Assembly: GCA_964544225.1 (NCBI GenBank)
Contig: CAZIZK010000001.1
Span: forward strand, 54,856 to 118,855
From: an uncultured Candidatus Saccharibacteria bacterium
GTDB taxonomy: Bacteria; Patescibacteriota; Minisyncoccia; Phycocordibacterales; UBA9973
Length of the DNA stretch: 64,000 bases
Direction: 5' to 3'
Made by a program: the position numbers and the translations under genes. Shown here piece after piece: positions 2,985 to 51,728 of this stretch. The notes beneath the pieces were generated by a model. That model was not told where the DNA came from. It searched no databases and was given only the letters and a program-made list of their open reading frames with translations. How positions within the stretch are numbered: position 1 is the first letter of the stretch; each line of letters begins with the position of its first letter.

Positions 2985-3431
2985 TTATATTTTACCAACC
3001 TGTTCTTGTTTTTCAAGTCTTCTCAATATGCGCCTACCTTTTTTGCTATCCATGAATTCAACTGTATCTTTTCCAAGGAAAACTGGTAATCCTTTTGGCT
3101 TTCTTATAAAAACCCTTTTTCCTTGTTCTCTGTAACGTTGAATCAAAGGCAACATTTCATCTGGATTAAAGATTGGCATTGAAAAAATCACTGTATTGTT
3201 TTCTAAAACCCTGGCATGGTTATTAGGAAAAGTGATTCTCCCAGGTTGATTTGCTTCTATGGAATGTTCAATAGTTTTACTCATCGATTGAGTAACTCGT
3301 GCATTAGTATGGAGTTGAAAGTCAGTCAACTCAATAATAATATCGCCATTGCACGGATCATGAATCGCTGGATGTATTACTAATTTTTCTTCCATACCTA
3401 GAGTATATAATAGGGTGGTGTAAAATGTCAA
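2985..3431 (-). CDS. Hypothetical protein (probable true start at internal MEEKLVIH), divergent from the repressor gene
   Basis: ORF of 148 aa with no recognisable motif. It sits between the MTase and the repressor. Confidence 0.35.
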   Translation of the reverse strand: MTFYTTLLYTLGMEEKLVIHPAIHDPCNGDIIIELTDFQLHTNARVTQSMSKTIEHSIEANQPGRITFPNNHARVLENNTVIFSMPIFNPDEMLPLIQRYREQGKRVFIRKPKGLPVFLGKDTVEFMDSKKGRRILRRLEKQEQVGKI

Positions 3432-3465: not shown

Positions 3466-3481
3466 CTGTATCTATGCACAT
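3466..3481 (+). promoter_or_regulatory. Candidate SOS-box-like operator CTGT-N8-ACAT overlapping the repressor start codon
   Basis: ctgtatctatgcacat is one mismatch from the gamma-proteobacterial CTGT-N8-ACAG; tatact (-10-like) lies just upstream. This is a weak call. Confidence 0.2.
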
Positions 3482-4112
3482 AATACAAAAACAACTTTTA
3501 GACTTAATAGCGACACATGAGGACTTTGGATCTTATAGCCTTAGGAAGATAGCTGAAATGGTTGGAGCCAAGGGAAAACCCCAAACTGCCAAATATCACT
3601 TACAACAGCTTGAGAAAGATGGACTAATTCAATTAAACCTTGAGGCTGGAATCATAAAGCTAGTTAAAAGAGGTTATGCTAAAGCTTCTACTAGCCCTAT
3701 CTACTCCCTACCAATAGTGGGATCTGCTAATTGTGGTCCTGCTACTATATTTGCAGAACAGAATGTTGATCAATATTTAAAAATATCTTCATCAATGCTA
3801 CCAAGAAACAAAAGTAATCTGTATGCCCTTATTGCTGATGGAGATTCAATGAATAATGCAGAGGTTGAAGGAAAAACTATTAAAAGCGGAGACTTCGTTT
3901 TGGTCGATAGTGAATATAAGAACTATAAGACTGGTGATATCGTAGTTGCTGTTATAGACAACATGGCAACTATAAAAAGATTCCGAGAAGATAAACCCAA
4001 TAATAGAATTATCCTTGAGGCTGATTCAACAGAAAAATATCTCCCTATATTTATTCATGAAGGTGACAATTTCTTATTAAGTGGAAAAGTAGTCGGTATT
4101 ATTAAAAGTTAA
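3474..4112 (+). CDS. LexA/phage CI-like repressor (N-terminal winged HTH plus C-terminal S24 self-cleaving peptidase)
   Basis: GDSM serine nucleophile and the lysine in TIKRF match the LexA Ser/Lys dyad. The N-terminal segment is HTH-like. It is the first gene of a six-gene operon with 5-23 nt gaps. Confidence 0.8.
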   Translation: MHIIQKQLLDLIATHEDFGSYSLRKIAEMVGAKGKPQTAKYHLQQLEKDGLIQLNLEAGIIKLVKRGYAKASTSPIYSLPIVGSANCGPATIFAEQNVDQYLKISSSMLPRNKSNLYALIADGDSMNNAEVEGKTIKSGDFVLVDSEYKNYKTGDIVVAVIDNMATIKRFREDKPNNRIILEADSTEKYLPIFIHEGDNFLLSGKVVGIIKS

Positions 4113-4125
4113 TTTATAAAAATAT

Positions 4126-4368
4126 ATGTCAAATTATCATGTAACAAACCCAAAAGGTTCAAATGATTGGAAAGTAATAAAAGAAAAAGCAGAAAGAGCT
4201 TCTGTAATAGTAAGCACTCAAAGAGAAGCGGAGAAAATAGCAAAAGAATTATCAGGTAATTCTGGTGGTGGAGAGGTTGTAATCCATAAACCAAACGGTG
4301 GTCCAATAAGAGATAAAGATACTGTAGCCCCAGGTCGAGAAAGTTCAGTTATAGACAAAAAACATTAA
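4126..4368 (+). CDS. Small DUF2188-like protein
   Basis: 80 aa; the pattern YHV..DWKV...A.RASV..T..EA..IA...A...GGGEV.IH resembles DUF2188. Confidence 0.35.
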   Translation: MSNYHVTNPKGSNDWKVIKEKAERASVIVSTQREAEKIAKELSGNSGGGEVVIHKPNGGPIRDKDTVAPGRESSVIDKKH

Positions 4369-4385
4369 AAAATAAATATAAAATT

Positions 4386-4757
4386 ATGAAAAGAATATTT
4401 ATTAGTTTTGCGATTGAAGATAAATTATATAGAGATTTTCTTGTTGGACAATCTAAGAAAGAAGAATCCCCGTTTGAATTTGTTGATATGTCAGTAAAAG
4501 AACCCTGGAAATCTGATTGGAAAGATAAATGTTATTCAAAAATAATAGGTTGTGATGGAGTAATTGGTTTAATAAGCAAAAATACTCCTAAGGCTTCTGG
4601 AGAATTATTTGAGTTAGAATGTGCATATGACGAAAATGTGCCTGTGATGCTAATGTATATTAATGATGATAGACCTGCTCTTCCGTCATTTTTAAACAGC
4701 AAAAGAGTAAACATATGGAGTTGGAGTAACTTAAAATCTTTTATTAGTAACCTTTAA
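4386..4757 (+). CDS. TIR-like domain protein (DUF1863 / ThsB-like)
   Basis: Begins with RIFISFAIED... (FISF plus an acidic residue) and has a conserved Glu in ELECA, as in MTH538/ThsB-type TIR-like domains. Length 123 aa. Confidence 0.5.
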   Translation: MKRIFISFAIEDKLYRDFLVGQSKKEESPFEFVDMSVKEPWKSDWKDKCYSKIIGCDGVIGLISKNTPKASGELFELECAYDENVPVMLMYINDDRPALPSFLNSKRVNIWSWSNLKSFISNL

Positions 4758-4762
4758 TATAT

Positions 4763-5731
4763 ATGCGTAAAGCTCTAATTGTTGGTATTAATAATTACCC
4801 AGGTAATCCACTCAAAGGGTGTATAAATGATGCATCATCATTTAAAACTGTTATTGAGAAAAACGGTGACGGATCACCTAATTTTTCTACAAGGCTAGAA
4901 ACTGATGTTCCTACAAAATCTCAACTCAAAACAATGCTAAAGGAATTATTTGAGGGTGATAGTGACATAGCTTTATTTTATTTTTCAGGACATGGATCTT
5001 TTAATGAATTTGGTGGTTATGTAGTTACCCCAGATCATCAAGAAAACGATGAGGGAGTTTCTATGGATGAAATTTTATTGCTTGCCAATAAGTCAAAAGC
5101 AAAAGATAAAATTATTATATTAGACTGCTGTCATTCAGGTGCATTTGGTTCTCCTGCAAGTACTGGTGGTACATCTTGTCAGATAATCGAAGGTGTTGTT
5201 GTTCTAACTGCAAGCAAATCCAGTGAAAGTGCTATTGAAATTAATGGTCATGGTATTTTCACAAATTTATTGATTGATGCATTGCAAGGTGGTGCAGCTG
5301 ATCTTCGTGGTCATATAACCCCTGGTAGTGTTTATGCATATATAGATCAAGCATTAGGACCTTGGGATCAAAGACCAGTATTTAAGACAAATGTAACTAG
5401 GTTTACATCTCTAAGAACAATAAATCCACAAGTTCCAACTGAAACACTTAGAAAAATAACTGAGTATTTTCAAACAGCTGAGCAAGATTACTCTCTAAAT
5501 CCATCTTATGAAGACACGAATTCGGAAGATATTAAACATTCTATTATTGAACCTCTCGCTAAAACAGAAAATGTTGCAGTATTTAAAGATTTGCAAAAGT
5601 TCCAGAGTGTAGGTTTGGTTATTCCAGTAGACGCACCTTACATGTATTTTGCTGCGATGGAGTCAAAATCATGTAAATTAACAGCACTTGGTTATCATTA
5701 TTGGAGACTTGTTAAAGACGGTAAAATATAA
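4763..5731 (+). CDS. Caspase-like cysteine peptidase (Peptidase C14 / metacaspase-like) with a C-terminal domain of unknown function
   Basis: ALIVGINNY...NDA...FYFSGHG (catalytic His) and IIILDCCHSG (catalytic Cys), the canonical caspase-fold dyad order. The remaining ~150 aa are unassigned. Confidence 0.7.
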   Translation: MRKALIVGINNYPGNPLKGCINDASSFKTVIEKNGDGSPNFSTRLETDVPTKSQLKTMLKELFEGDSDIALFYFSGHGSFNEFGGYVVTPDHQENDEGVSMDEILLLANKSKAKDKIIILDCCHSGAFGSPASTGGTSCQIIEGVVVLTASKSSESAIEINGHGIFTNLLIDALQGGAADLRGHITPGSVYAYIDQALGPWDQRPVFKTNVTRFTSLRTINPQVPTETLRKITEYFQTAEQDYSLNPSYEDTNSEDIKHSIIEPLAKTENVAVFKDLQKFQSVGLVIPVDAPYMYFAAMESKSCKLTALGYHYWRLVKDGKI

Positions 5732-5740
5732 TAATTAATA

Positions 5741-6394
5741 ATGCGGTCTTTGGAACAAGTAGCAAGAAAAATAAACTTCCATATTGAAAAGAAAAAACCA
5801 CCAGTTATTAATGAAAAATGGATTAAAGTAAATTCTCCAGCTTCTTATAAATTCATAATTGAAAATTCTATTGATTGGGACACGGTAACAATAAATCTTG
5901 ATAAGTCATACCAAGGAAAGTGGAATAAGTGTTCTAAAAGAAAAAGATACTTAGATCAAGAATTTTATAAAGATGAGGAAGAACTAAATCAAATATTAAA
6001 TACTCATAAAGATAAACTTTATACTTTTGTAAGTAGAATAAACAAAGAAGATGAACTTGTTTGTGACAGAATAAGTATTTTATTAGTTAGACTAGCTCAA
6101 AAAGGTAATACTCTTGCTTTGATAGAAATTAAAAGCCTATATGTTTTTATAATAGATAAGTGGCTAGAAGAAAGTAAATATTTAAAAAGATGGCGTGGCT
6201 ATGAAGAGGAATTAGTAGCACTACTAGAGAGGTGTATTTTCAGATATAGATACTCTGGTACATTTATTGGTTATTTATATAGAACTCTCCAGTTAAGTGC
6301 TTTAGCTTTAGAGCCATTAGAAGCATATTCACTAAATGACAAGGTCTTTGATGGGAATAAAACCAGAATAGACTTTATATCCTGTGAAAATTAA
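5741..6394 (+). CDS. Hypothetical lysine-rich protein in the repressor/TIR/caspase operon
   Basis: 217 aa, no recognisable motifs; 9 nt after the caspase gene. Confidence 0.4.
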   Translation: MRSLEQVARKINFHIEKKKPPVINEKWIKVNSPASYKFIIENSIDWDTVTINLDKSYQGKWNKCSKRKRYLDQEFYKDEEELNQILNTHKDKLYTFVSRINKEDELVCDRISILLVRLAQKGNTLALIEIKSLYVFIIDKWLEESKYLKRWRGYEEELVALLERCIFRYRYSGTFIGYLYRTLQLSALALEPLEAYSLNDKVFDGNKTRIDFISCEN

Positions 6395-6417
6395 CAGGCT
6401 TTTGATACAATAAACCA

Positions 6418-6921
6418 ATGACTATACTAATTATTTTTGTAATCTTAATGGCGGTTGTTTTTATTGTTTTAAAGAAATTTTTCCCAGATATATTTAATGG
6501 CGAGGAGAAAGTAATTAAGTCTCCATATAATTACAAAAAGAAAGACTTTTTAATGAGTCGTGCTGAACATGAGTTTTTTGATATTCTCATTGAGGTTGTA
6601 GGAAATCAATATTATGTATTTCCACAAATACATCTATCAACTATTTTAGATAATAAGGTTGTGGGACAAAACTGGAGAGGAGCATTCCGTCATATTGATG
6701 AAAAGTCAGTTGATTTCGTTATTTGTGATAAAGCATATATCAAACCAATTCTTGCTATTGAACTTGATGATAAAACACACGAAAGAGAAGACAGAAAAGG
6801 ACGAGATGGAGAAGTAGAACGTATTCTTAAAGAATCAGGTCTGTCTCTTTTAAGGTTTGGTAACAATGGGAGCTTTAATAAAGAAGAAATAAAGCGTTTG
6901 ATCTTAGAGAAATTAAGGTAG
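6418..6921 (+). CDS. Membrane-anchored DUF2726-family protein (PD-(D/E)xK-like nuclease fold)
   Basis: N-terminal TM helix followed by MSRAEHEFFDIL...YYVFPQIHL...VDFVICDK...ILAIELDDKTH...RD..VERIL.ESGL.LLRF, which matches the DUF2726 core. Confidence 0.6.
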   Translation: MTILIIFVILMAVVFIVLKKFFPDIFNGEEKVIKSPYNYKKKDFLMSRAEHEFFDILIEVVGNQYYVFPQIHLSTILDNKVVGQNWRGAFRHIDEKSVDFVICDKAYIKPILAIELDDKTHEREDRKGRDGEVERILKESGLSLLRFGNNGSFNKEEIKRLILEKLR

Positions 6922-7160
6922 GTTTTATATAGAAAAGTTACAGTTGAATGTAACCTTTAACCTCAATCCCGTGTCACTTTTGTCACTTTTCTAATTCGCA
7001 CGAGATACGTCGATTTGATATAATAAAATTATTGGAAATAACGTTACAGGGCTTGTCAGTGAAAAGTCCTAACACGAGTGTCCCCGCATTGACAACCTGT
7101 TAGTTTTGATGACCCATTTAGTTATGTACTAAGTGCGACCCACAAAGCTTCATGTTGCAG

Positions 7161-7191
7161 AAAAAAGAACGACGGTTGTCGTTCTTTTTTT
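7161..7191. terminator. Bidirectional intrinsic terminator
   Basis: aaaaaa-GAACGAC-ggtt-GTCGTTC-ttttttt lies between the convergent genes ending at 6921 (+) and 7200 (-). Confidence 0.8.
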
Positions 7192-7199
7192 GCAAATAA

Positions 7200-8444
7200 T
7201 TAATGCATATCCATAGATTCAGGCATGCTCGTACTACTTTTAATTTCCTTAAATATACTTGGATTTTCATCTCCTGTTACATCAAGTACTGCCCAAGCAC
7301 CTTTATTCATTCTTGCTAGTGCGTGATCTACAAGTAAATATTTACCTGGAACATCAACAGTGAATTCTACAATACTCGCTCCACCAGGAAGTACAGCGGT
7401 TGCTTGTGTATTGTGTTCCATCGCACCACCTATACTTGCATTTGGATACACGGTATCAAAAATCTCACCAATTACATGGAAAGAAGAGATCAGATTTACT
7501 CCACCATTGCCGACATACATACGAATTTTATCACCAACTTTTGCTTGCATTCGTGGTGTTGTTTCGATACGGCCATTGAAAGTTACATAGTTAGGATGAC
7601 CATCGAGAAGGGCATCAGGATCAAATGGCACCAACCCTTTTTTACCAAGCTGTCCAATGGTGTATAGCTCTCCTTGCATAACATAAAATTCTTTATCGAC
7701 TTCTGTAAACCCTTCTTTTGGATCAACTAAAATCATTCCATATTGTCCATGTGAATTGTGTGTAGAAACATTTGGCGTTGCGCAGTGATAAATATAAAGA
7801 CCTGGGTTTAATGCTTTCCATCTGAATGTTTTTGTTTCTCCAGGTGCTACATGAGTAACTGACGCTCCACCTCCTGGACCTGTAACTGCGTGTAGATCTA
7901 TGTTGTGGTCATGTAGACTTGATGGGTCATTTGTCAGTGTTAATTCTACCGTATCCCCCTCGCGTATACGAAGCATTGGACCAGGAACTTGTTTGTTGTA
8001 TGTCCAGTAGTTGAAATAAATTCCAGGAGATATCTCTCCGAGGACTTCTTGTGCAGTCAAACTAATACGCACAATACCGTCTGCGTCAGGTGCTTGTGGT
8101 TTTTCTGGAACAGCTGTCGGATCTGCACCAATATCTGCGACTTTATCGAAACGATTTTCATATCTAAAAAAGTCTATAATTTTAGCAAATGGGATAGATG
8201 GAGGGAGTCCACCCGGAGCGTGTGAATGCACAAATGCTGGCATAGCAAAATCAGGAGGATAAGTTTTGTTTGCCACTAGTCCTGTGAAAAAAGAAATCAC
8301 AATTAGAGCCACTGGAATGTAAAGCCATTTTTGCTTAAAAATTGAATGGAAATGACCTTGTTTCCATATATATCGCACAATTATGACAAAGGCTATAAAA
8401 CCTACTATTCCAGATATCATTTCAAAAATAAGGTATTTAAACAT
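7200..8444 (-). CDS. Copper-containing nitrite reductase (NirK)-like two-domain multicopper oxidase, membrane-anchored
   Basis: N-terminal TM helix; cupredoxin-type ligand motifs HDHNIDLH, YIYHCATP (Cys) and HGQYGM (Met). Confidence 0.55.
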   Translation of the reverse strand: MFKYLIFEMISGIVGFIAFVIIVRYIWKQGHFHSIFKQKWLYIPVALIVISFFTGLVANKTYPPDFAMPAFVHSHAPGGLPPSIPFAKIIDFFRYENRFDKVADIGADPTAVPEKPQAPDADGIVRISLTAQEVLGEISPGIYFNYWTYNKQVPGPMLRIREGDTVELTLTNDPSSLHDHNIDLHAVTGPGGGASVTHVAPGETKTFRWKALNPGLYIYHCATPNVSTHNSHGQYGMILVDPKEGFTEVDKEFYVMQGELYTIGQLGKKGLVPFDPDALLDGHPNYVTFNGRIETTPRMQAKVGDKIRMYVGNGGVNLISSFHVIGEIFDTVYPNASIGGAMEHNTQATAVLPGGASIVEFTVDVPGKYLLVDHALARMNKGAWAVLDVTGDENPSIFKEIKSSTSMPESMDMH

Positions 8445-9211: not shown

Positions 9212-11490
9212 AAAATACCCTAAACAGAAAAAAATATTTCTCACTTGTACATATACAAAAACGTGACGGAACAATAGTTCCCTTTGATCAAAAACGCATT
9301 GCTCGAGCAATTTTTCGTGCGATGCAATCAGTAAAAGAGGGTGATGAGATACATGCGGAAAAAGTAATGCTGAAAGTGTTAGATTCACTTCTTGAACTCA
9401 AAAAAGAAAACAAAACAAAACAGTTTATTCCTCATGTTGAAACAATACAAGACATTGTAGAAAATGAACTTGTTGCTTCAAGTTTTCTACAAACCGCAAA
9501 AGCATATATCCTTTATCGAAAAGAAAGATCGTTGGTACGAGAAAGATCTGGTTTTGTGCCAGAAAAGGTTAAAGAACTTGTTATGGAAGGTAAAAAGTAT
9601 TTTAGGAATCCTCTAGCTGAATTTGTATACTATCGTACATATGCAAAATGGATAGACGAAGAGGGTCGTCGAGAAACATGGACTGAAACGGTTGGTCGCT
9701 ATGTTGATTTTATGCGCGATAACATAAATGGAAAACTTACGGAATCTGAATATAAAGAAATTCGAGAAACAATTCTAAGTCAAGAATCAATGCCATCTAT
9801 GAGACTTCTGCAATTTGCAGGTAAAGCTACAAGACGAACAAATGTCTGTGCATATAACTGCTCTTTTATTGCTCCAAGAAATTTCCAAGACTTTGCTGAA
9901 ATTATGTATATTTCAATGTGCGGAACTGGTGTTGGTTGGTCAGTAGAAAGTGAAAATATTCAAGCACTCCCACAAGTCAAAAAACAAAAAAACACGAAGG
10001 TCTCTACTTTAGTTATTCCTGACAGTAAGGAAGGTTGGGCAGATGCATTTTCACTTGGACTTAAAACATGGTTTGATGGAGATGATATTGTTTTTGATTA
10101 TTCTCTCATTCGTCCTGCCGGATCACGCCTAAAGACTATGGGTGGCAAAAGTTCTGGACCCGCTCCGCTTCAATCATTACTTTTATTTACTCGCGAACGT
10201 GTACTAAGTCGCCAAGGTAGACATTTATCAAACTTAGATGCACATGACATCATTTGTAAAATTGGTGAATGTGTCGTGGCGGGTGGTGTTCGAAGAAGTG
10301 CCATGATATCCCTTTCTGATTTAGACGATGAAATGATTCGTGATTCAAAGAAAGGTCAATTTTATATTTCGGAAGGACAAAGAATGCTTGCAAACAATTC
10401 TGCTGTATATCTTTCAAAACCCAGCACAACTGAGTTTCTTGATGAATGGGTTGCCTTGATGAAAAGCGGTAGTGGTGAACGAGGTATATTTAATCGTGGA
10501 GGACTTTCTGGAACATTGCCAAAAAGAAGACTTGATCAATTCAAAGGTGGTATATATCCTGCTTGGGGAACAAATCCTTGTGGTGAAATTATTTTGCAAT
10601 CAAAACAATTCTGCAATCTTTCCGAAGTTATCGCAAGAGCAGATGATACTGAAGAGAGTTTGCTCAAAAAAATTCGTATTGCGACAATAATAGGTACTTA
10701 CCAGTCAACACTTACCTATTTCCCATATTTGTCGAAAGAATGGAAAAAGAATTGCGAAAAAGAAAGACTACTTGGGGTGTCTATAACTGGACAATGGGAT
10801 TGTGAGCTTGTTCGTAATGGAGATATATTGGAGAAAATGAAACGAATGGCAATCGAAACAAATAAAAAATACGCAAAACGTTTTGGTGTGGAGCAATCAA
10901 CATGTATCACATGTGTAAAACCTTCAGGAACAGTTTCTCAAACCGTAGATTGCGCTTCAGGTATGCATCCTCGCCATGCACCGTATTATATTCGACGTGT
11001 CCGCATTTCAGCGACAGACGCTTTGTTTAAAATGCTTAAAGATCAAGGAGTGCCGTACTATCCAGAAGTCGGGCAAACCTTCGAAAATGCATCGACCTTT
11101 GTACTTGAATTTCCAGTCAAAGCCCCTGAGGGAGCTATCTGCAAAGATGATGTGGACGCAATTGCACAATTAGAGCATTGGAAAATAGTTAAGCAACATT
11201 TCACTGAACACAATCCTTCTGTAACTGTATCAGTTTCAGACGATGAATGGTTAAAAGTTGCAAATTGGGTTTACCAAAACTGGGATTTAGTCGGTGGATT
11301 ATCATTTCTACCTCGATCAAAACATGTATATCAACTTGCACCGTACGAATCAATTACAAAGGTAAAATATGAGGAAATGAAAAAACGTCTTGGTGATTTA
11401 GATTTTTCTAAAATTGTTACTTATGAAAAAGAAGACGAAACAGAGGTAAAAAAAGAATTAGCTTGTGTTGGAGGACTGTGTGAAATATAA
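9208..11490 (+). CDS. nrdJ: Ribonucleotide reductase, class II (adenosylcobalamin-dependent, NrdJ-like) with N-terminal ATP-cone
   Basis: ATP-cone (VQKRDGTIVPFDQKRIARAI), active-site GTNPCGEI, C-terminal Cys pair CVGGLCEI. No nrdB is nearby and a PduO adenosyltransferase is adjacent. Confidence 0.75.
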   Translation: MKNTLNRKKYFSLVHIQKRDGTIVPFDQKRIARAIFRAMQSVKEGDEIHAEKVMLKVLDSLLELKKENKTKQFIPHVETIQDIVENELVASSFLQTAKAYILYRKERSLVRERSGFVPEKVKELVMEGKKYFRNPLAEFVYYRTYAKWIDEEGRRETWTETVGRYVDFMRDNINGKLTESEYKEIRETILSQESMPSMRLLQFAGKATRRTNVCAYNCSFIAPRNFQDFAEIMYISMCGTGVGWSVESENIQALPQVKKQKNTKVSTLVIPDSKEGWADAFSLGLKTWFDGDDIVFDYSLIRPAGSRLKTMGGKSSGPAPLQSLLLFTRERVLSRQGRHLSNLDAHDIICKIGECVVAGGVRRSAMISLSDLDDEMIRDSKKGQFYISEGQRMLANNSAVYLSKPSTTEFLDEWVALMKSGSGERGIFNRGGLSGTLPKRRLDQFKGGIYPAWGTNPCGEIILQSKQFCNLSEVIARADDTEESLLKKIRIATIIGTYQSTLTYFPYLSKEWKKNCEKERLLGVSITGQWDCELVRNGDILEKMKRMAIETNKKYAKRFGVEQSTCITCVKPSGTVSQTVDCASGMHPRHAPYYIRRVRISATDALFKMLKDQGVPYYPEVGQTFENASTFVLEFPVKAPEGAICKDDVDAIAQLEHWKIVKQHFTEHNPSVTVSVSDDEWLKVANWVYQNWDLVGGLSFLPRSKHVYQLAPYESITKVKYEEMKKRLGDLDFSKIVTYEKEDETEVKKELACVGGLCEI

Positions 11491-17120: not shown

Positions 17121-18449
17121 TTATTTTACCAATGTAATCTTCTTATCATTCAGCACCAACCTACTCCTCAAATGTCCCATCAGTTCACGCTTCTCTAGTG
17201 GTGTGCCTTCCCTCAGCACATACTTGGCATACTCTCTTGTATTCACGTCATCTTCGTTGATGTTGTATTTTGGCGTTCCCTTGGTTGCCAGTCGTTGCAG
17301 TCTATTAAATCGCTTGATTTCTTCTTCAAGCTTGATTCGCATACCTAGTTCGTTGATGCTTACTTTATCTATGACTTTGAATAGCTCCTCAATCAGTTCT
17401 TCCTCTCGTATATATTTATTCTTGCAATTCCTGTCTCTTGCCTTTGAACAGGAGTAGTAGACATACTTGGCGGTCGTTCCATCTTTGAGTTCCTTGTACT
17501 TCTCCTGTGCCGTTATACCTGACTCACACATTCCGCAGGTAAATAGTTTAGTAAATGCGAACTCTCTGTTTTCTCTCACAATCCTATCTCGCTTTAAATG
17601 TGATTGGGCTTTTTCAAATAATTCTTTGGTGATGATTGGTGTATGACTTCCTTGATACCAGTTGTCACTATTTCTCGGATATTCAAATGGTCCATAATAG
17701 ATTGGCATTTCAAATATTCGATACACTCCTGATAGTGTAAGGGGCTTATTTCCTCGAGTGTAGAAATTCAGATCGAATCGCAACCAGTTATATACCTTTC
17801 TTCCGCTCCATCCATCGTATGCAACTTTCTCAAACATTTGTTTGATTACATGAGCCCGATCTGGGTCAATAATTATCTGACACTTCCTATCCATTAACTT
17901 TTGATTCAAATATCCAAGCGGTGCCATTCCAGGCCATAGCCCCATCTCTACTCTCGTTCGCAATCCTCGCTTTACATTGATGCCTCTGTTGTCGTTCTCA
18001 AGTTTCGCTTGGCTTCCCAATATCATCAGGAGAAACTTCTCGTTTGGATTGTTTCCGAATGTCTGCCCGAAGGTTCGTATCATGTGCAATTTTCCTGCAT
18101 CCATCAGGTCTACGATTTTTCCCAAGTCTCCTGCATTTCTTGAGATACGATCTGGTGCCCAAGTAAGTATCGCATTGAATTTCTCTTGCTTGAGTTCCTC
18201 AATGATTTCGTTGAAGACTGGTCGCTGTCCTGTTTCCTTTGCACTATGACTCTCACGCTTCATGGTTACTACTTCAAGCCCCTCACGATCCGCTAATTGG
18301 AGCATCTCGCTAATCTGGCTATCAATACTCAATACCTGCCGTTCCTCAGACTCTGTTGATTTTCTTGCGTATAAGCAATATCTGATCTTCTTTGGTTCGA
18401 CTACTACTTTTGCTACACCTTGCTCCATATTTGGGTTTTCTATCTTCAT
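17121..18449 (-). CDS. Large serine recombinase (resolvase/invertase N-terminal domain plus recombinase and zinc-ribbon domains)
   Basis: N-terminal YARKSTESEE...SIDSQ (catalytic Ser region), C-terminal Cys cluster CGMCESG...YSCSKARDRNC. Confidence 0.85.
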   Translation of the reverse strand: MKIENPNMEQGVAKVVVEPKKIRYCLYARKSTESEERQVLSIDSQISEMLQLADREGLEVVTMKRESHSAKETGQRPVFNEIIEELKQEKFNAILTWAPDRISRNAGDLGKIVDLMDAGKLHMIRTFGQTFGNNPNEKFLLMILGSQAKLENDNRGINVKRGLRTRVEMGLWPGMAPLGYLNQKLMDRKCQIIIDPDRAHVIKQMFEKVAYDGWSGRKVYNWLRFDLNFYTRGNKPLTLSGVYRIFEMPIYYGPFEYPRNSDNWYQGSHTPIITKELFEKAQSHLKRDRIVRENREFAFTKLFTCGMCESGITAQEKYKELKDGTTAKYVYYSCSKARDRNCKNKYIREEELIEELFKVIDKVSINELGMRIKLEEEIKRFNRLQRLATKGTPKYNINEDDVNTREYAKYVLREGTPLEKRELMGHLRSRLVLNDKKITLVK

Positions 18450-22244: not shown

Positions 22245-22447
22245 ACAATTTAATAACAGACCTAACCCCTCAATTTATTGAGGATATGGTCGCAAAATCC
22301 GTCCAAAGTAAAGAACTCCTAGTCAGAGTCTACTTTGGACGGTCATATCTGGAAACGGGTATGGGTATACCTCACGGGGTATATCGGATCTGGCTAGGAG
22401 CTTTTTGCTACCTATACGGTCCTTCATAACAAAACCGTCCAAAGTTT
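22245..22447 (+). other. Structured 5' leader or candidate ncRNA with an extended -10 (tggtataat), a perfect 12-bp inverted repeat and a direct repeat of ccgtccaaagt
   Basis: ccgtccaaagta-N20-tactttggacgg; a second ccgtccaaagt lies 10 nt before the ATG of the 22448 gene; cctcaa-ttta-ttgagg hairpin. Confidence 0.3.
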
Positions 22448-36689: not shown

Positions 36690-36694
36690 TATTG

Positions 36695-36768
36695 TCCGCC
36701 TTCATGGATTCGAACCATGGACCCCAGAGGTATAAGCTCTGTGCTCTAACCAACTGAGCTAAAGGCGG
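36695..36768 (-). tRNA. tRNA with anticodon UAU (reads AUA; tRNA-Ile2-type), 74 nt, no encoded CCA
   Basis: Minus strand CCGCCTT-TA-GCTC-AGTTGGTTA-GAGC-A-CAGAG-CTTATAC-CTCTG-GGGTC-CATGG-TTCGAAT-CCATG-AAGGCGG-A. Canonical U8, A14, G18G19, U33, A37 and the T-loop TTCGAAT are present; the 1:72 pair is C:G. Confidence 0.7.
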
Positions 36769-40761: not shown

Positions 40762-40771
40762 TAAATACATG

Positions 40772-41161
40772 GGGGTGACGGGCTTCGATGGGGGCTGTTA
40801 TCTTTTATGTGCGTGTAAAGTACTCAGGAATCTTTTAAAACTTCTTGGAAAAGACTAAGTGCAAACAAAGTCGCTTCAGTAAAGTCACCTTACGCTTTTG
40901 CGTTTAGTGGCTCTGCTCTCTCATTCGCTTAATTTAAGCCAATGGAGTGTCTATGCTATCTACATCCGATAAATAGTATGGGCATAATTAATCGGGTTAC
41001 GAAACAATTACCGCTTGAATTTGTTTCCGACAATTAAAAGCTCGGTGATATAGTGTTTTGTCTGTTCTCTAGCTATATCATTTAAAACCAATGAACATAC
41101 TACACACGTAGACTCATATAAGAGCGTCCTTCACATGGCGGTTCAACTCCGCCCACTTCCA
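40772..41161 (+). ncRNA. ssrA: tmRNA (ssrA), about 390 nt
   Basis: 5' GGGGGUGACGGGCUUCGAUGGGGG (tRNA-like 5' half), 3' GGCGG-UUCAACU-CCGCC T-arm and CACUUCC-A acceptor strand giving a G3:U70 wobble. An internal tag reading frame GCA AAC AAA ... GCT CTC TCA TTC GCT TAA encodes a tag ending ALSFA. Confidence 0.85.
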
Positions 41162-41167
41162 CAATTT

Positions 41168-50240: not shown

Positions 50241-51728
50241 TTAGTTCTTCGGAACATCATAACTCACCTCGCTTTTCCTCTCCAATATATCTATTGGGTA
50301 CTCGCCAGTAAAGAATGATGTAGATAGATGATCAGCTGGGATACCCACAGCCCTAACCAACCCGTCTAGTGACAAGTAGTGCAGTGATGTAGCACCTAGA
50401 TACTCACGAATCTCCTCGACTGTTTTATGTGATGCTATCAGGTCGGACTGCTTTGGAGTATCGATACCGTAAAAGTCTGGGAACTTCACCGCCGGTGAAG
50501 AAACCAGGAAGTGAACCTCCGCGGCGCCTGCTTTGAACAAGCTTTCCACCAGCCTCTTACTAGTTGTACCACGCACAATAGAGTCGTCGATAACAGCAAC
50601 CCTCTTACCTTGTAGCATTTCTGGCATAGGGATCAATTTGAGTGCGACAGAATGTTCGCGTGACTTCTGAGTAGGCTCGATAAATGTTCGGTGCACATAG
50701 CGGTTCTTGATCAGTGCCATCTCCATAGGGATGCCAGACTCTTCGGAATACCCTATCGCCACCGACATAGCAGTATCTGGAACTGGCACGACAATATCGA
50801 CATCGATCTTGTATTCACGAGCAAGCTCGACACCAAAGTTCTTGCGAACTTCGTAAATTAATTTGCCATTCATTACAGAGTCGGGTCGGGCAAAATAAAC
50901 GTATTCAAATATATCATGCTTCGGTGTTGCAGGTGCAAGAGTTACACTCTCCATACAACCACCAGTAAACACGAGCATCTCACCAGGGGCAACGTCGCGC
51001 AACACTTTTGCGCCAACAGTTTTAATAGCACAAGTTTCTGAAGCTACCATATAACTACCATCATCTATCTGCCCTAGTGTAAGTGGGCGCATGCCGTATG
51101 AGTCGCGGATAGCTACGAGTTCCCCCTTGTTCATCATGACAATAGCAAAGGCACCAGTAAGAAGTGGGTAGACTTTTGTTACTGCATCCTTCAGGCTCAA
51201 ACCTTGGGATAGTAGTAACTGTACTGCATCGAATACAAGCTCGGAATCACTACGGTCAGGAACAAGTGCATTATTAGACTGCAAGAAATCTTGCAAAGCT
51301 TTTACTGAAGGCAAGTTACCATTGTGAGCAAGAGAAAAGTCGCCACCATTGATAACAGGTTGTGCATGGTCCAGTGCCCCACCCCCAGATGTAGAGTACC
51401 TGTTGTGGCCGATACCTATGTGGCCTGGTAGTTTATCGATATCTTCTTCTTTGTAGACATTGGATACGAGGCCGGCACCTTTGTGTGTATACATATTGTT
51501 ACCGTCGCAAGTTACAATACCTGAAGCTTCTTGCCCACGGTGTTGCAATGCAAACAAGCCAAAAAATATCATACGTGCCAATGGCAGATCATTACCATAT
51601 ATACCGACAATTCCACATTTCTCTTTTAAGTGTTCCATAATAAATTTTGTATTAATGATTTGAAATAAAATAAACCTTTCGAACACCCTCTTCACAGGCC
51701 GACTGGGCCGAGAAAAGCAATTTTTCAC
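50241..51728 (-). CDS. purF: Amidophosphoribosyltransferase; true start probably the internal Met at 51638 (MEHLKEKCGIVG). The ORF-track N-terminal 30 aa come from translating the leader repeat
   Basis: Ntn-glutaminase Cys in KEKCGIVGIYG, PRTase domain motifs. Confidence 0.9.
   Translation of the reverse strand: MKNCFSRPSRPVKRVFERFILFQIINTKFIMEHLKEKCGIVGIYGNDLPLARMIFFGLFALQHRGQEASGIVTCDGNNMYTHKGAGLVSNVYKEEDIDKLPGHIGIGHNRYSTSGGGALDHAQPVINGGDFSLAHNGNLPSVKALQDFLQSNNALVPDRSDSELVFDAVQLLLSQGLSLKDAVTKVYPLLTGAFAIVMMNKGELVAIRDSYGMRPLTLGQIDDGSYMVASETCAIKTVGAKVLRDVAPGEMLVFTGGCMESVTLAPATPKHDIFEYVYFARPDSVMNGKLIYEVRKNFGVELAREYKIDVDIVVPVPDTAMSVAIGYSEESGIPMEMALIKNRYVHRTFIEPTQKSREHSVALKLIPMPEMLQGKRVAVIDDSIVRGTTSKRLVESLFKAGAAEVHFLVSSPAVKFPDFYGIDTPKQSDLIASHKTVEEIREYLGATSLHYLSLDGLVRAVGIPADHLSTSFFTGEYPIDILERKSEVSYDVPKN

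Follow-up and report, generated by a model that had tools for sequence, protein, structure and literature searches.

The DUF2726 gene and the island that carries it

The window, by which we mean the whole stretch of 64,000 nucleotides that was analysed, contains an array of six genes on the forward strand between positions 3474 and 6921, separated by gaps of 5-23 nt. The first two genes, recognised by profile matches, code for an S24/LexA-like repressor (3474-4112) and a DUF2188 protein (4126-4368). They are followed by a TIR-like protein of 123 aa (4386-4757; ThsB_TIR, E=0.036) and a caspase-like protease of 322 aa (4763-5731; Peptidase_C14, E=1.6e-20; PADLOC caspase, E=1.2e-20; phrog_18397, E=5e-86), then by a 217-aa protein (5741..6394) that matches no family and has a sigma-70 region-2-like fold. 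The last gene, which is our subject here, occupies positions 6418..6921, stop codon included, and codes for a DUF2726 protein of 167 aa; its open reading frame begins at the first possible start codon behind an in-frame stop. The initial annotation described it as the terminal gene of the operon, which is right with respect to position. We use the word operon in this positional sense of a co-directional array, with co-transcription not implied, and scans for promoters and terminators performed no better than on shuffled sequence (21 against 19.6 expected).

The reverse strand at the left end of the window carries the large subunit of a terminase (1-1142; phrog_38, E=4.9e-64) and, according to profile matches, a terminase-small-subunit-like protein (1143-1559) and a ParB-methylase (1546-2829). 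The GC content across 4-7 kb is 0.30-0.33, compared to 0.35-0.46 for most of the window. The best reading of the region is a prophage-like island in a Patescibacteria (Nomurabacteria-like) genome, with the DUF2726 gene as its last gene. The idea of a prophage cargo rests on the island's own terminase and repressor, since a scan of IMG/VR returned one distant match, which indicates that the DUF2726 family is not visibly phage-borne in that collection.

Directly 3' of the DUF2726 gene lies a conserved non-coding element of 155 nt (6937..7091, no strand assigned) with 80-92% identity across seven loci. In comparisons with the related islands L001, L006, L013, L014 and L015 the homology breaks off sharply at 7088-7092, while that with L016 extends to 7190. 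A second copy of the element adjoins a serine-recombinase gene in L006, and in L013, L014 and L016 a SIR2-like gene is found between the DUF2726 gene and the element. We obtained no Rfam match to the element better than E=0.12 and an RNA folding z of -0.27. Its palindrome does not behave as a recurring operator in the window, where there is one perfect copy and where a site with one mismatch, at 51498, is within chance.

Membrane anchor, fold and putative active site

The profile search leaves little room for doubt about the domain. Pfam DUF2726 (PF10881) matches the window protein with 99.5 bits, compared to a gathering cut-off of 24.7 (E=1.5e-28), and the match takes residues 45-165 through profile positions 4-125 of 126. 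Given this score and the near-full coverage of the profile, the core is complete and the match far beyond chance, as the initial annotation had stated, and the four strings that it quoted (EHEFFDIL, VDFVICDK, ILAIELDDKTH and LLRF) are all found in the translation. Weaker Pfam matches to DUF559 (E=4.6e-5) and to REase_MTES_1575 (E=1.7e-4, below its gathering cut-off) overlap the same region. The gene has dN/dS values of 0.05-0.09 against six homologues, indicating strong purifying selection. A look-up of the exact window protein returned no record, and the near-identical homologues P0003, P0023 and P0042 were used in its place.

The first 21 residues (6418..6480) form a predicted transmembrane anchor. 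Residues 1-19 have a mean Kyte-Doolittle hydropathy of 3.02, a hydrophobic segment is retained at the N-terminus of 117 homologues (mean 2.83) while its sequence drifts, and the AlphaFold2 model places a helix at residues 2-21 with a pLDDT of 91-94, so that the transmembrane helix named in the initial annotation is well supported. The N-terminus lacks both a basic n-region and an A-x-A site, and for this reason it is read as an anchor with the N-terminus out and the C-terminus in and not as a signal peptide. This topology is also the one that the positive-inside rule predicts, with on average 0.24 Lys/Arg residues ahead of the helix and 3.8 in the 15 residues that follow it in the 117 homologues. 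The basic juxtamembrane linker (residues 22-44; 6481..6549) is modelled with low confidence (pLDDT 64-66, and <50 at residues 29-32), and both its length and its sequence vary between homologues. Behind the linker lies the DUF2726 domain, a predicted Vsr-like nuclease domain with an alpha-beta-beta-beta-alpha-beta core (residues 45-165; 6550..6912). A single-pass protein of this kind would expose a short N-terminus to the outside and hold its catalytic domain at the cytoplasmic face of the membrane on a linker of ~25 residues.

The AlphaFold2 model, built from 81 homologues, has a mean pLDDT of 84 and a pTM of 0.70. Past the linker it consists of a helix (48-64), a strand (65-72), two further strands (97-104 and 109-117), a second helix (124-139) and a last strand (143-148). 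The core of the modelled structure is restriction-endonuclease-like, of the PD-(D/E)xK superfamily, and shows the alpha-beta-beta-beta-alpha-beta order that is characteristic of Vsr-like (EDxHD) nucleases. Searches of PDB sequences with the window protein and with a profile of the 81 sequences gave matches at chance level only. We regard the identity of the protein, its fold and its anchor as next to certain.

Conservation in the alignments is concentrated on a small set of residues. Among others, E50, D99, E115, L116, D117, D118, H121, R126, R129 and D130 are invariant in the 81 homologues, and an alignment that combines proteins from CPR bacteria, an IncHI2 plasmid, the F-like YihA and Vibrio inoviruses has E50, F53, L57, D99, E115, L116, D117, D118, H121, R126, R129 and D130 as its invariant positions. 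Of 130 full-length representatives, 122 contain an ExDDxxH motif. The active site of Vsr and I-Bth0305I, known as EDxHD, is composed of a Glu on a helix, a metal-binding Asp, a His that acts as general base and a following Asp, and candidates for each of these can be named in the window protein. E50 (6565..6567, + strand), in the first helix of the domain and invariant through the plasmid and inovirus members, may be analogous to Glu25 of Vsr and Glu170 of I-Bth0305I. D99 (6712..6714, +), in the VDFVIC sequence on model strand beta-2, is a putative metal-binding Asp and appears to match the 'D' of the DUF559 and Vsr motifs. The stretch E115-L-D117-D118-K-T-H121 in IELDDKTH (6760..6780, +) would supply an acidic pair and the putative general base, and its residues E115, L116, D117, D118 and H121 remain unchanged from CPR bacteria through to YihA of the F plasmid. 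D130 (6805..6807, +), which closes the R126..R129-D130 motif, is a candidate for the last Asp, being placed 9 residues past H121 much as Asp222 is past His213 in I-Bth0305I.

The candidates E50, D99, D117 (or E115), H121 and D130 therefore have the order and spacing of the residues in Vsr and I-Bth0305I, and judged on this basis the DUF2726 site is probably Vsr-like. The classical lysine of the (D/E)xK motif is absent, because the residue two past E115 is the invariant D117, and K119 varies (K/R/S). The proposal that DUF2726 is a PD-(D/E)xK-related fold thus stands as far as the superfamily fold is concerned, in both the model and the fold comparison, and fails for the lysine; the D...(E/D)xK residues expected from an alignment turned out to be D99...E115-L-D117-D118..H121, without a lysine at the x-K position. 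As the catalytic set is conserved over distant hosts, the conserved function is likely to be enzymatic, and we somewhat favour the view that the DUF2726 protein is an active nuclease. Its substrate may also be RNA, since the structure is just as close to RAP domains, which are associated with RNA.

The window protein differs from each of the closest known proteins of this fold. DUF559 endonuclease-like and REase_MTES_1575 proteins consist of soluble domains that are often joined to helicases; compared with these, including NGO0050 (DUF559, PDB 3hrl), the window protein adds the N-terminal helix that bears E50 and the membrane anchor. I-Bth0305I (PDB 3r3p), of the EDxHD family, has N-terminal NUMOD/HTH modules and resides in a group I intron, whereas the DUF2726 protein has a transmembrane helix and no DNA-recognition module. 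Vsr itself (PDB 1cw0) differs in its zinc-binding Cys/His cluster, in its match to the Pfam Vsr family and in not being membrane-anchored. The window protein was considered as a genuine Vsr mismatch-repair endonuclease, as which the JGI annotation labels many of the homologues, and we rejected this: at E up to 0.1 Pfam finds no Vsr domain and only DUF2726 with the weak DUF559 and MTES_1575 matches, and the zinc site is absent, C103 being the sole invariant cysteine. A membrane anchor would be unexpected in a repair enzyme, and the neighbouring methylases are by Pfam of the N6/N4 or N6-adenine types and not C5 methylases, so that we consider a role in mismatch repair extremely improbable.

Distribution of the family and its genomic neighbourhoods

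The DUF2726 family is large. At least 659 homologues of about 160-190 aa were found at E up to 1e-5, with 61-100% identity among the 120 matches listed, and an exhaustive phmmer search against 1.84 billion cluster representatives (clustered at 50% identity) yielded 6,953 clusters with E no higher than 1e-3, 2,535 at 1e-10 and 96 at 1e-30. Our counts of the family norm are based on the best 150 phmmer matches, of which 130 are full-length; of these 130, 120 have an N-terminal hydrophobic segment in front of DUF2726. In its domain, its membrane anchor and its pattern of residues the window protein follows the norm of the family, and its architecture and context are unexceptional. A search of the literature for DUF2726 or PF10881 found mentions at the level of annotation only and no demonstrated activity; two comparative-genomics papers treat DUF2726 as a predicted REase-fold DNase, and the name occurs as an annotation adjoining mcr-1.

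The family is also common on plasmids, being found by tblastn in 4,425 of the 72,556 plasmids of PLSDB (about 6%), 3,916 of which are conjugative. An IncHI2 protein is 35.8% identical to the window protein over residues 5-166, anchor included (E=2e-20), and the homologue on F-like plasmids is yihA (about 28% identity, E=1e-9). Like the window protein, which with its N-terminal helix in front of DUF2726 (about 160-200 aa) and its E...D...E-L-D-D-x-x-H...R-x-x-R-D constellation is YihA-like, these two consist of an N-terminal hydrophobic helix, a linker and DUF2726, have the identical set of invariant residues, and are encoded at or near the end of a long run of co-directional genes on a mobile element. 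They differ in host and setting, Enterobacteriaceae plasmids compared to a chromosomal island of Patescibacteria, in their low identity and in their neighbours: yihA of F-like plasmids follows traI-traX-finO, a thermonuclease gene and a small regulator and precedes repA, whereas a TIR-caspase pair and the sigma-2-like gene are found here. Furthermore, six filamentous Vibrio phages (inoviruses) carry a DUF2726 gene as an accessory gene.

For the chromosomal relatives we scanned one genome per GTDB species (185,579 genomes) and obtained 509 matching stretches, nearly all of them with record titles of Patescibacteria lineages. The neighbourhood survey covers 77 of the best 80 species-level loci from this set. 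The upstream neighbour of DUF2726 shares its strand in 60 of 72 loci, and the downstream neighbour does so in 57 of 77, which indicates that a terminal position is not the general rule for the DUF2726 gene. Clustering of the 427 proteins encoded within three genes, in search of a conserved partner, gave 358 clusters and none that would qualify, the largest being a serine recombinase (7 of the 77 loci) and a ResIII helicase (6 loci). By kind, the most frequent neighbours are restriction-modification, SIR2 and serine-recombinase genes. Within two genes upstream, Pfam identifies ResIII (7), resolvases or recombinases (5), DEAD (4), methylases, RE_endonuc, PDDEXK_1, the HEPN-like DUF4145 and Cas4; within two genes downstream it identifies NUDIX (4), SIR2_2 (3), GmrSD (2), SNase (2), RNase H (2) and restriction-modification enzymes of type I and MmeI type. 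At a distance of 6-8 kb, in what is a qualitative comparison, the genes are mostly housekeeping ones such as those for IMPDH, EPSP synthase, a tRNA synthetase, ribosomal protein S9 and RNA polymerase. The restriction and defence contexts ascribed to DUF2726 at the outset are thus supported, since most relatives lie amid genes of restriction-modification, of defence and of mobile elements. The DUF2726 gene has variable neighbours and no partner that it always requires, and it is best described as standing alone in small variable islands that abound in defence genes and mobile elements. None of the defence models of PADLOC-DB 2.0 matched the DUF2726 protein at E up to 0.1.

Comparison of individual islands shows what moves together with the gene. 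By blastn, 5756-7088 of the window is 91.5% identical to L001-L002, from the start of the 217-aa gene to 167 nt past the DUF2726 stop. L001-L003 have the 217-aa gene and DUF2726 and neither TIR nor caspase, and in L001 a divergent large serine recombinase is located upstream of the pair. The array of LexA, TIR, caspase, 217-aa and DUF2726 genes seen in the window recurs in L006-L008 and L013, with sequences that diverge past ~7091. Homologues that are more distant, at 77-82% identity, are encoded in L004 after a methylase-SIR2-HerA-ResIII block and in L005 after a methylase-ResIII block (type III R-M-like), and DNA homology to the window is there limited to the DUF2726 coding region.

The TIR-like gene and the caspase gene share their architecture with type IV Thoeris, a system for which cloning has demonstrated defence by a two-gene operon, the effector being the caspase itself. 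The DUF2726 gene lies close to this pair in the same orientation in the window, but type IV Thoeris comprises two genes (for a TIR protein and the caspase-like ThsE), of which DUF2726 is neither, and includes no nuclease. The TIR-caspase pair is found in 1 of the 77 species-level DUF2726 loci, leaving 76 loci with DUF2726 and without Thoeris, and the DUF2726 gene is accordingly not a member of that system. Its independence of the TIR-caspase pair can be stated with good confidence, and it changes how the array is to be understood: the TIR-caspase pair constitutes the defence system, and the DUF2726 gene counts as separate cargo with which a prophage-like island ends.

Possible roles of the DUF2726 protein

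The reading that we prefer, with a probability of about one half, is that the DUF2726 protein is a stand-alone, cytoplasm-facing, membrane-tethered endonuclease of the Vsr type, a separable cargo of the island that may act on incoming DNA. The protein would work alone, and its most likely activity would be a metal-dependent cleavage of nucleic acid near the membrane. The tether could concentrate the enzyme where foreign DNA enters the cell, or it could hold the enzyme off the nucleoid. As the carriers of the family are conjugative plasmids, inoviruses and defence-rich islands, exclusion of or defence against incoming DNA is the most economical guess, which we offer as a tentative one.

The initial annotation had instead suggested that in this operon the protein may be a membrane-tethered effector directed at DNA or RNA, or a sensor of invading DNA; on this reading it would cooperate with the LexA, TIR and caspase genes. 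The common orientation and the short gaps would be in keeping with such a unit, as would the recurrence of the six- or five-gene array in L006-L008 and L013. However, type IV Thoeris is complete with TIR and caspase, and has an effector in the latter; L001-L003 dispense with both genes; and co-occurrence in the survey is limited to the single locus mentioned above. The recurring arrays have proteins that are 82-99% identical, and for this reason they represent the shared descent of one island and not independent co-occurrence. This separability largely refutes cooperation within the operon, and we consider it improbable. A partnership with the 217-aa protein alone, in which the sigma-2-like protein would be an expression driver or gate, a partner or an immunity factor for the nuclease, has more in its favour, although we still think it unlikely. 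The two genes travel as the one block that is 91.5% identical in nucleotide sequence, they stand next to each other in the window and in L001, L006, L013 and L015, a 42%-identical version of the 217-aa gene overlaps DUF2726 by 4 nt in L014, and the 217-aa protein has the sigma-70 region-2-like fold. Against this, the family of the 217-aa protein is small, with 61 matches compared to more than 659 for DUF2726; the gene accompanies DUF2726 only in its nearest relatives, being present in 3 of the 77 loci of the survey and missing from the other 74; homologues at 68% and 40% identity are found without DUF2726; and the yihA genes of plasmids have other neighbours.

Another function that the mobile-element setting brings to mind is that of an element-maintenance factor, a DNA-binding or nicking accessory for the replication, transfer or integration of the element, similar to DDP3/TaxD and not directed against foreign DNA. 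DDP3/TaxD, the 'DNA distortion polypeptide 3', is listed as one of the accessory genes for transfer and replication on IncX plasmids such as R6K, and like the DUF2726 gene it is borne by mobile elements. The window protein has a weak similarity to its NCBIfam model (NF041452, residues 38-119, E=1e-4), but at 22.4 bits, compared to an equivalog cut-off of 140, it is not a member, and residues 120-167, with H121 and D130, are uncovered by the match. As the ddp3 record JF776874 is absent from the plasmid collection, the tie to DDP3, which is the single one to a studied protein, consists of this weak NCBIfam match. The position of the F-like plasmid gene between the end of the tra operon and repA would fit a maintenance function, and so would the conserved non-coding element that the window gene abuts and that recurs beside serine-recombinase genes. 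A membrane anchor, on the other hand, fits poorly with action at an origin or att site, a recombinase lies within three genes in just 7 of the 77 CPR loci, and the intervening SIR2-like gene parts the conserved element from DUF2726 in L013, L014 and L016. We therefore hold a maintenance function to be about as doubtful as the partnership with the 217-aa protein. Far less probable is an outward-facing nuclease that would cut extracellular DNA for import and suit the nucleotide-dependent CPR bacteria. EndA and NucA, membrane-bound nucleases of competence systems, would be its likeness, and the anchor and the wide occurrence of the family in Patescibacteria agree with it, but the distribution of charge around the helix predicts the opposite orientation, with the C-terminus inside. 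Its distribution over species genomes, the 509 stretches noted above, is patchy, its genes lie in variable islands and not with competence genes, and the same protein is found on enterobacterial plasmids.

Returning to a membrane-tethered nuclease directed at incoming DNA, a more specific and speculative version can be formulated, to which we attach a low probability. YihA-like proteins may be widespread and so far unrecognised 'entry-gate' nucleases that are placed on the cytoplasmic side of the membrane and cut DNA while it is threaded through. Their carriers, which are conjugative plasmids and filamentous phages, elements that pass their own DNA through membrane channels, and CPR bacteria that import DNA, would in this way exclude or defend against rival incoming DNA, and if this is true the CPR protein of the window would be one of the most conserved forms. 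The family reaches from these islands to enterobacterial plasmids, where yihA of the F-like plasmids and the IncHI2 gene are the nearest tractable relatives from which the role of the CPR protein could be learned.

A conserved element downstream of the DUF2726 gene

Directly after the stop codon of the DUF2726 gene (6418-6921, +) lies a conserved non-coding element of about 155 nt (6937-7091), which recurs in several of the loci whose islands are related to that of the window. Copies are found at 8520-8671 in L001, 9499-9656 in L013, 3776-3929 in L014, about 4285-4437 in L015 and about 9500-9655 in L016, while L006 carries two (10197-10348 and about 17199-17320). Identity among the loci is 80-92%, with long invariant runs, and the conservation of the element equals or exceeds that of the flanking genes. 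Within it we find a perfect palindrome, GTTACAGTTGAATGTAAC, a tandem repeat of GTCACTTTT and a promoter-like TTCGCA-18-TATAAT. For most loci, homology ends abruptly at its 3' edge, ...CCCCGCA (7091).

In L013, L014 and L016 a SIR2-like gene lies between the DUF2726 gene and the element. The second copy in L006 adjoins a large serine recombinase gene at that gene's 3' end, an arrangement also seen in L013 and L014. A search of the element against Rfam gave no match, and an RNA folding test of the same stretch gave no signal (z = -0.27). The element looks like a site acting at the DNA level, for example a promoter, or a hot spot of the recombination or att type.

The conserved element is followed by another module, roughly 100 nt long (TTGACAACCTGTTAG..., 7092-7195), which the window has in common with L016 only (about 9656-9753 in the latter, 80% identity). 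It separates the element from a convergent multicopper/nitrite-reductase-like gene (7200-8444). Its 3' end is a strong bidirectional terminator hairpin, AAAAAAGAACGACGGTTGTCGTTCTTTTTTT.

The prophage-like island and its variable genes

The minus strand of the window's left end (1-2829) encodes a terminase large subunit (phrog_38, E=4.9e-64), which extends past the window's edge, a terminase-small-subunit-like protein and a ParB-N6/N4 methylase fusion, together with a 148-aa protein of no assigned identity (2985-3431, -). These genes are divergent from the repressor operon. The stretch between position 1 and about 7091 thus belongs to an island that is a prophage or derives from a phage. The related islands L006 and L007 have, further to the left, a diversity-generating retroelement with bAvd and reverse transcriptase genes.

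Between the S24/LexA-like repressor (3474-4112) and the TIR gene of the window, an 80-aa DUF2188 gene (4126-4368, +), which matches the PADLOC candidate PDC-S16 (E=3.5e-14), is inserted. Islands L006-L008 and L013, collinear in other respects, lack it and show a homology gap at about 4125-4364.

The TIR-like protein (123 aa) and caspase-like protease (322 aa) encoded at 4386-5731 (+) have the architecture of type IV Thoeris, and the pair is located directly 3' of an S24/LexA-like repressor, in a Patescibacteria genome and within a prophage-like element of it. The TIR-like protein shares only 64-65% identity with those of L006 and L013, against 95-98% for the flanking repressor and 82-99% for the caspase, which suggests that the TIR gene alone was replaced or rapidly diversified.

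Structured RNAs and a thermonuclease pairing

Rfam identified a LOOT RNA (22259-22385, +, 83.7 bits), a tmRNA with the tag ANKVASVKSPYAFAFSGSALSFA (40771-41164, +) and a tRNA-Ile(TAT) (36694-36768, -), none of which is related to the DUF2726 finding.

On plasmids of the IncHI2 and F-like types, the DUF2726 gene has a thermonuclease (SNase) gene nearby (3591-4106 in plasmid locus L093, 5112-5573 in L094), and SNase is the next or next-but-one gene downstream of DUF2726 in 2 of the 77 Patescibacteria (CPR) loci. The pairing of these two nuclease genes is recurrent.
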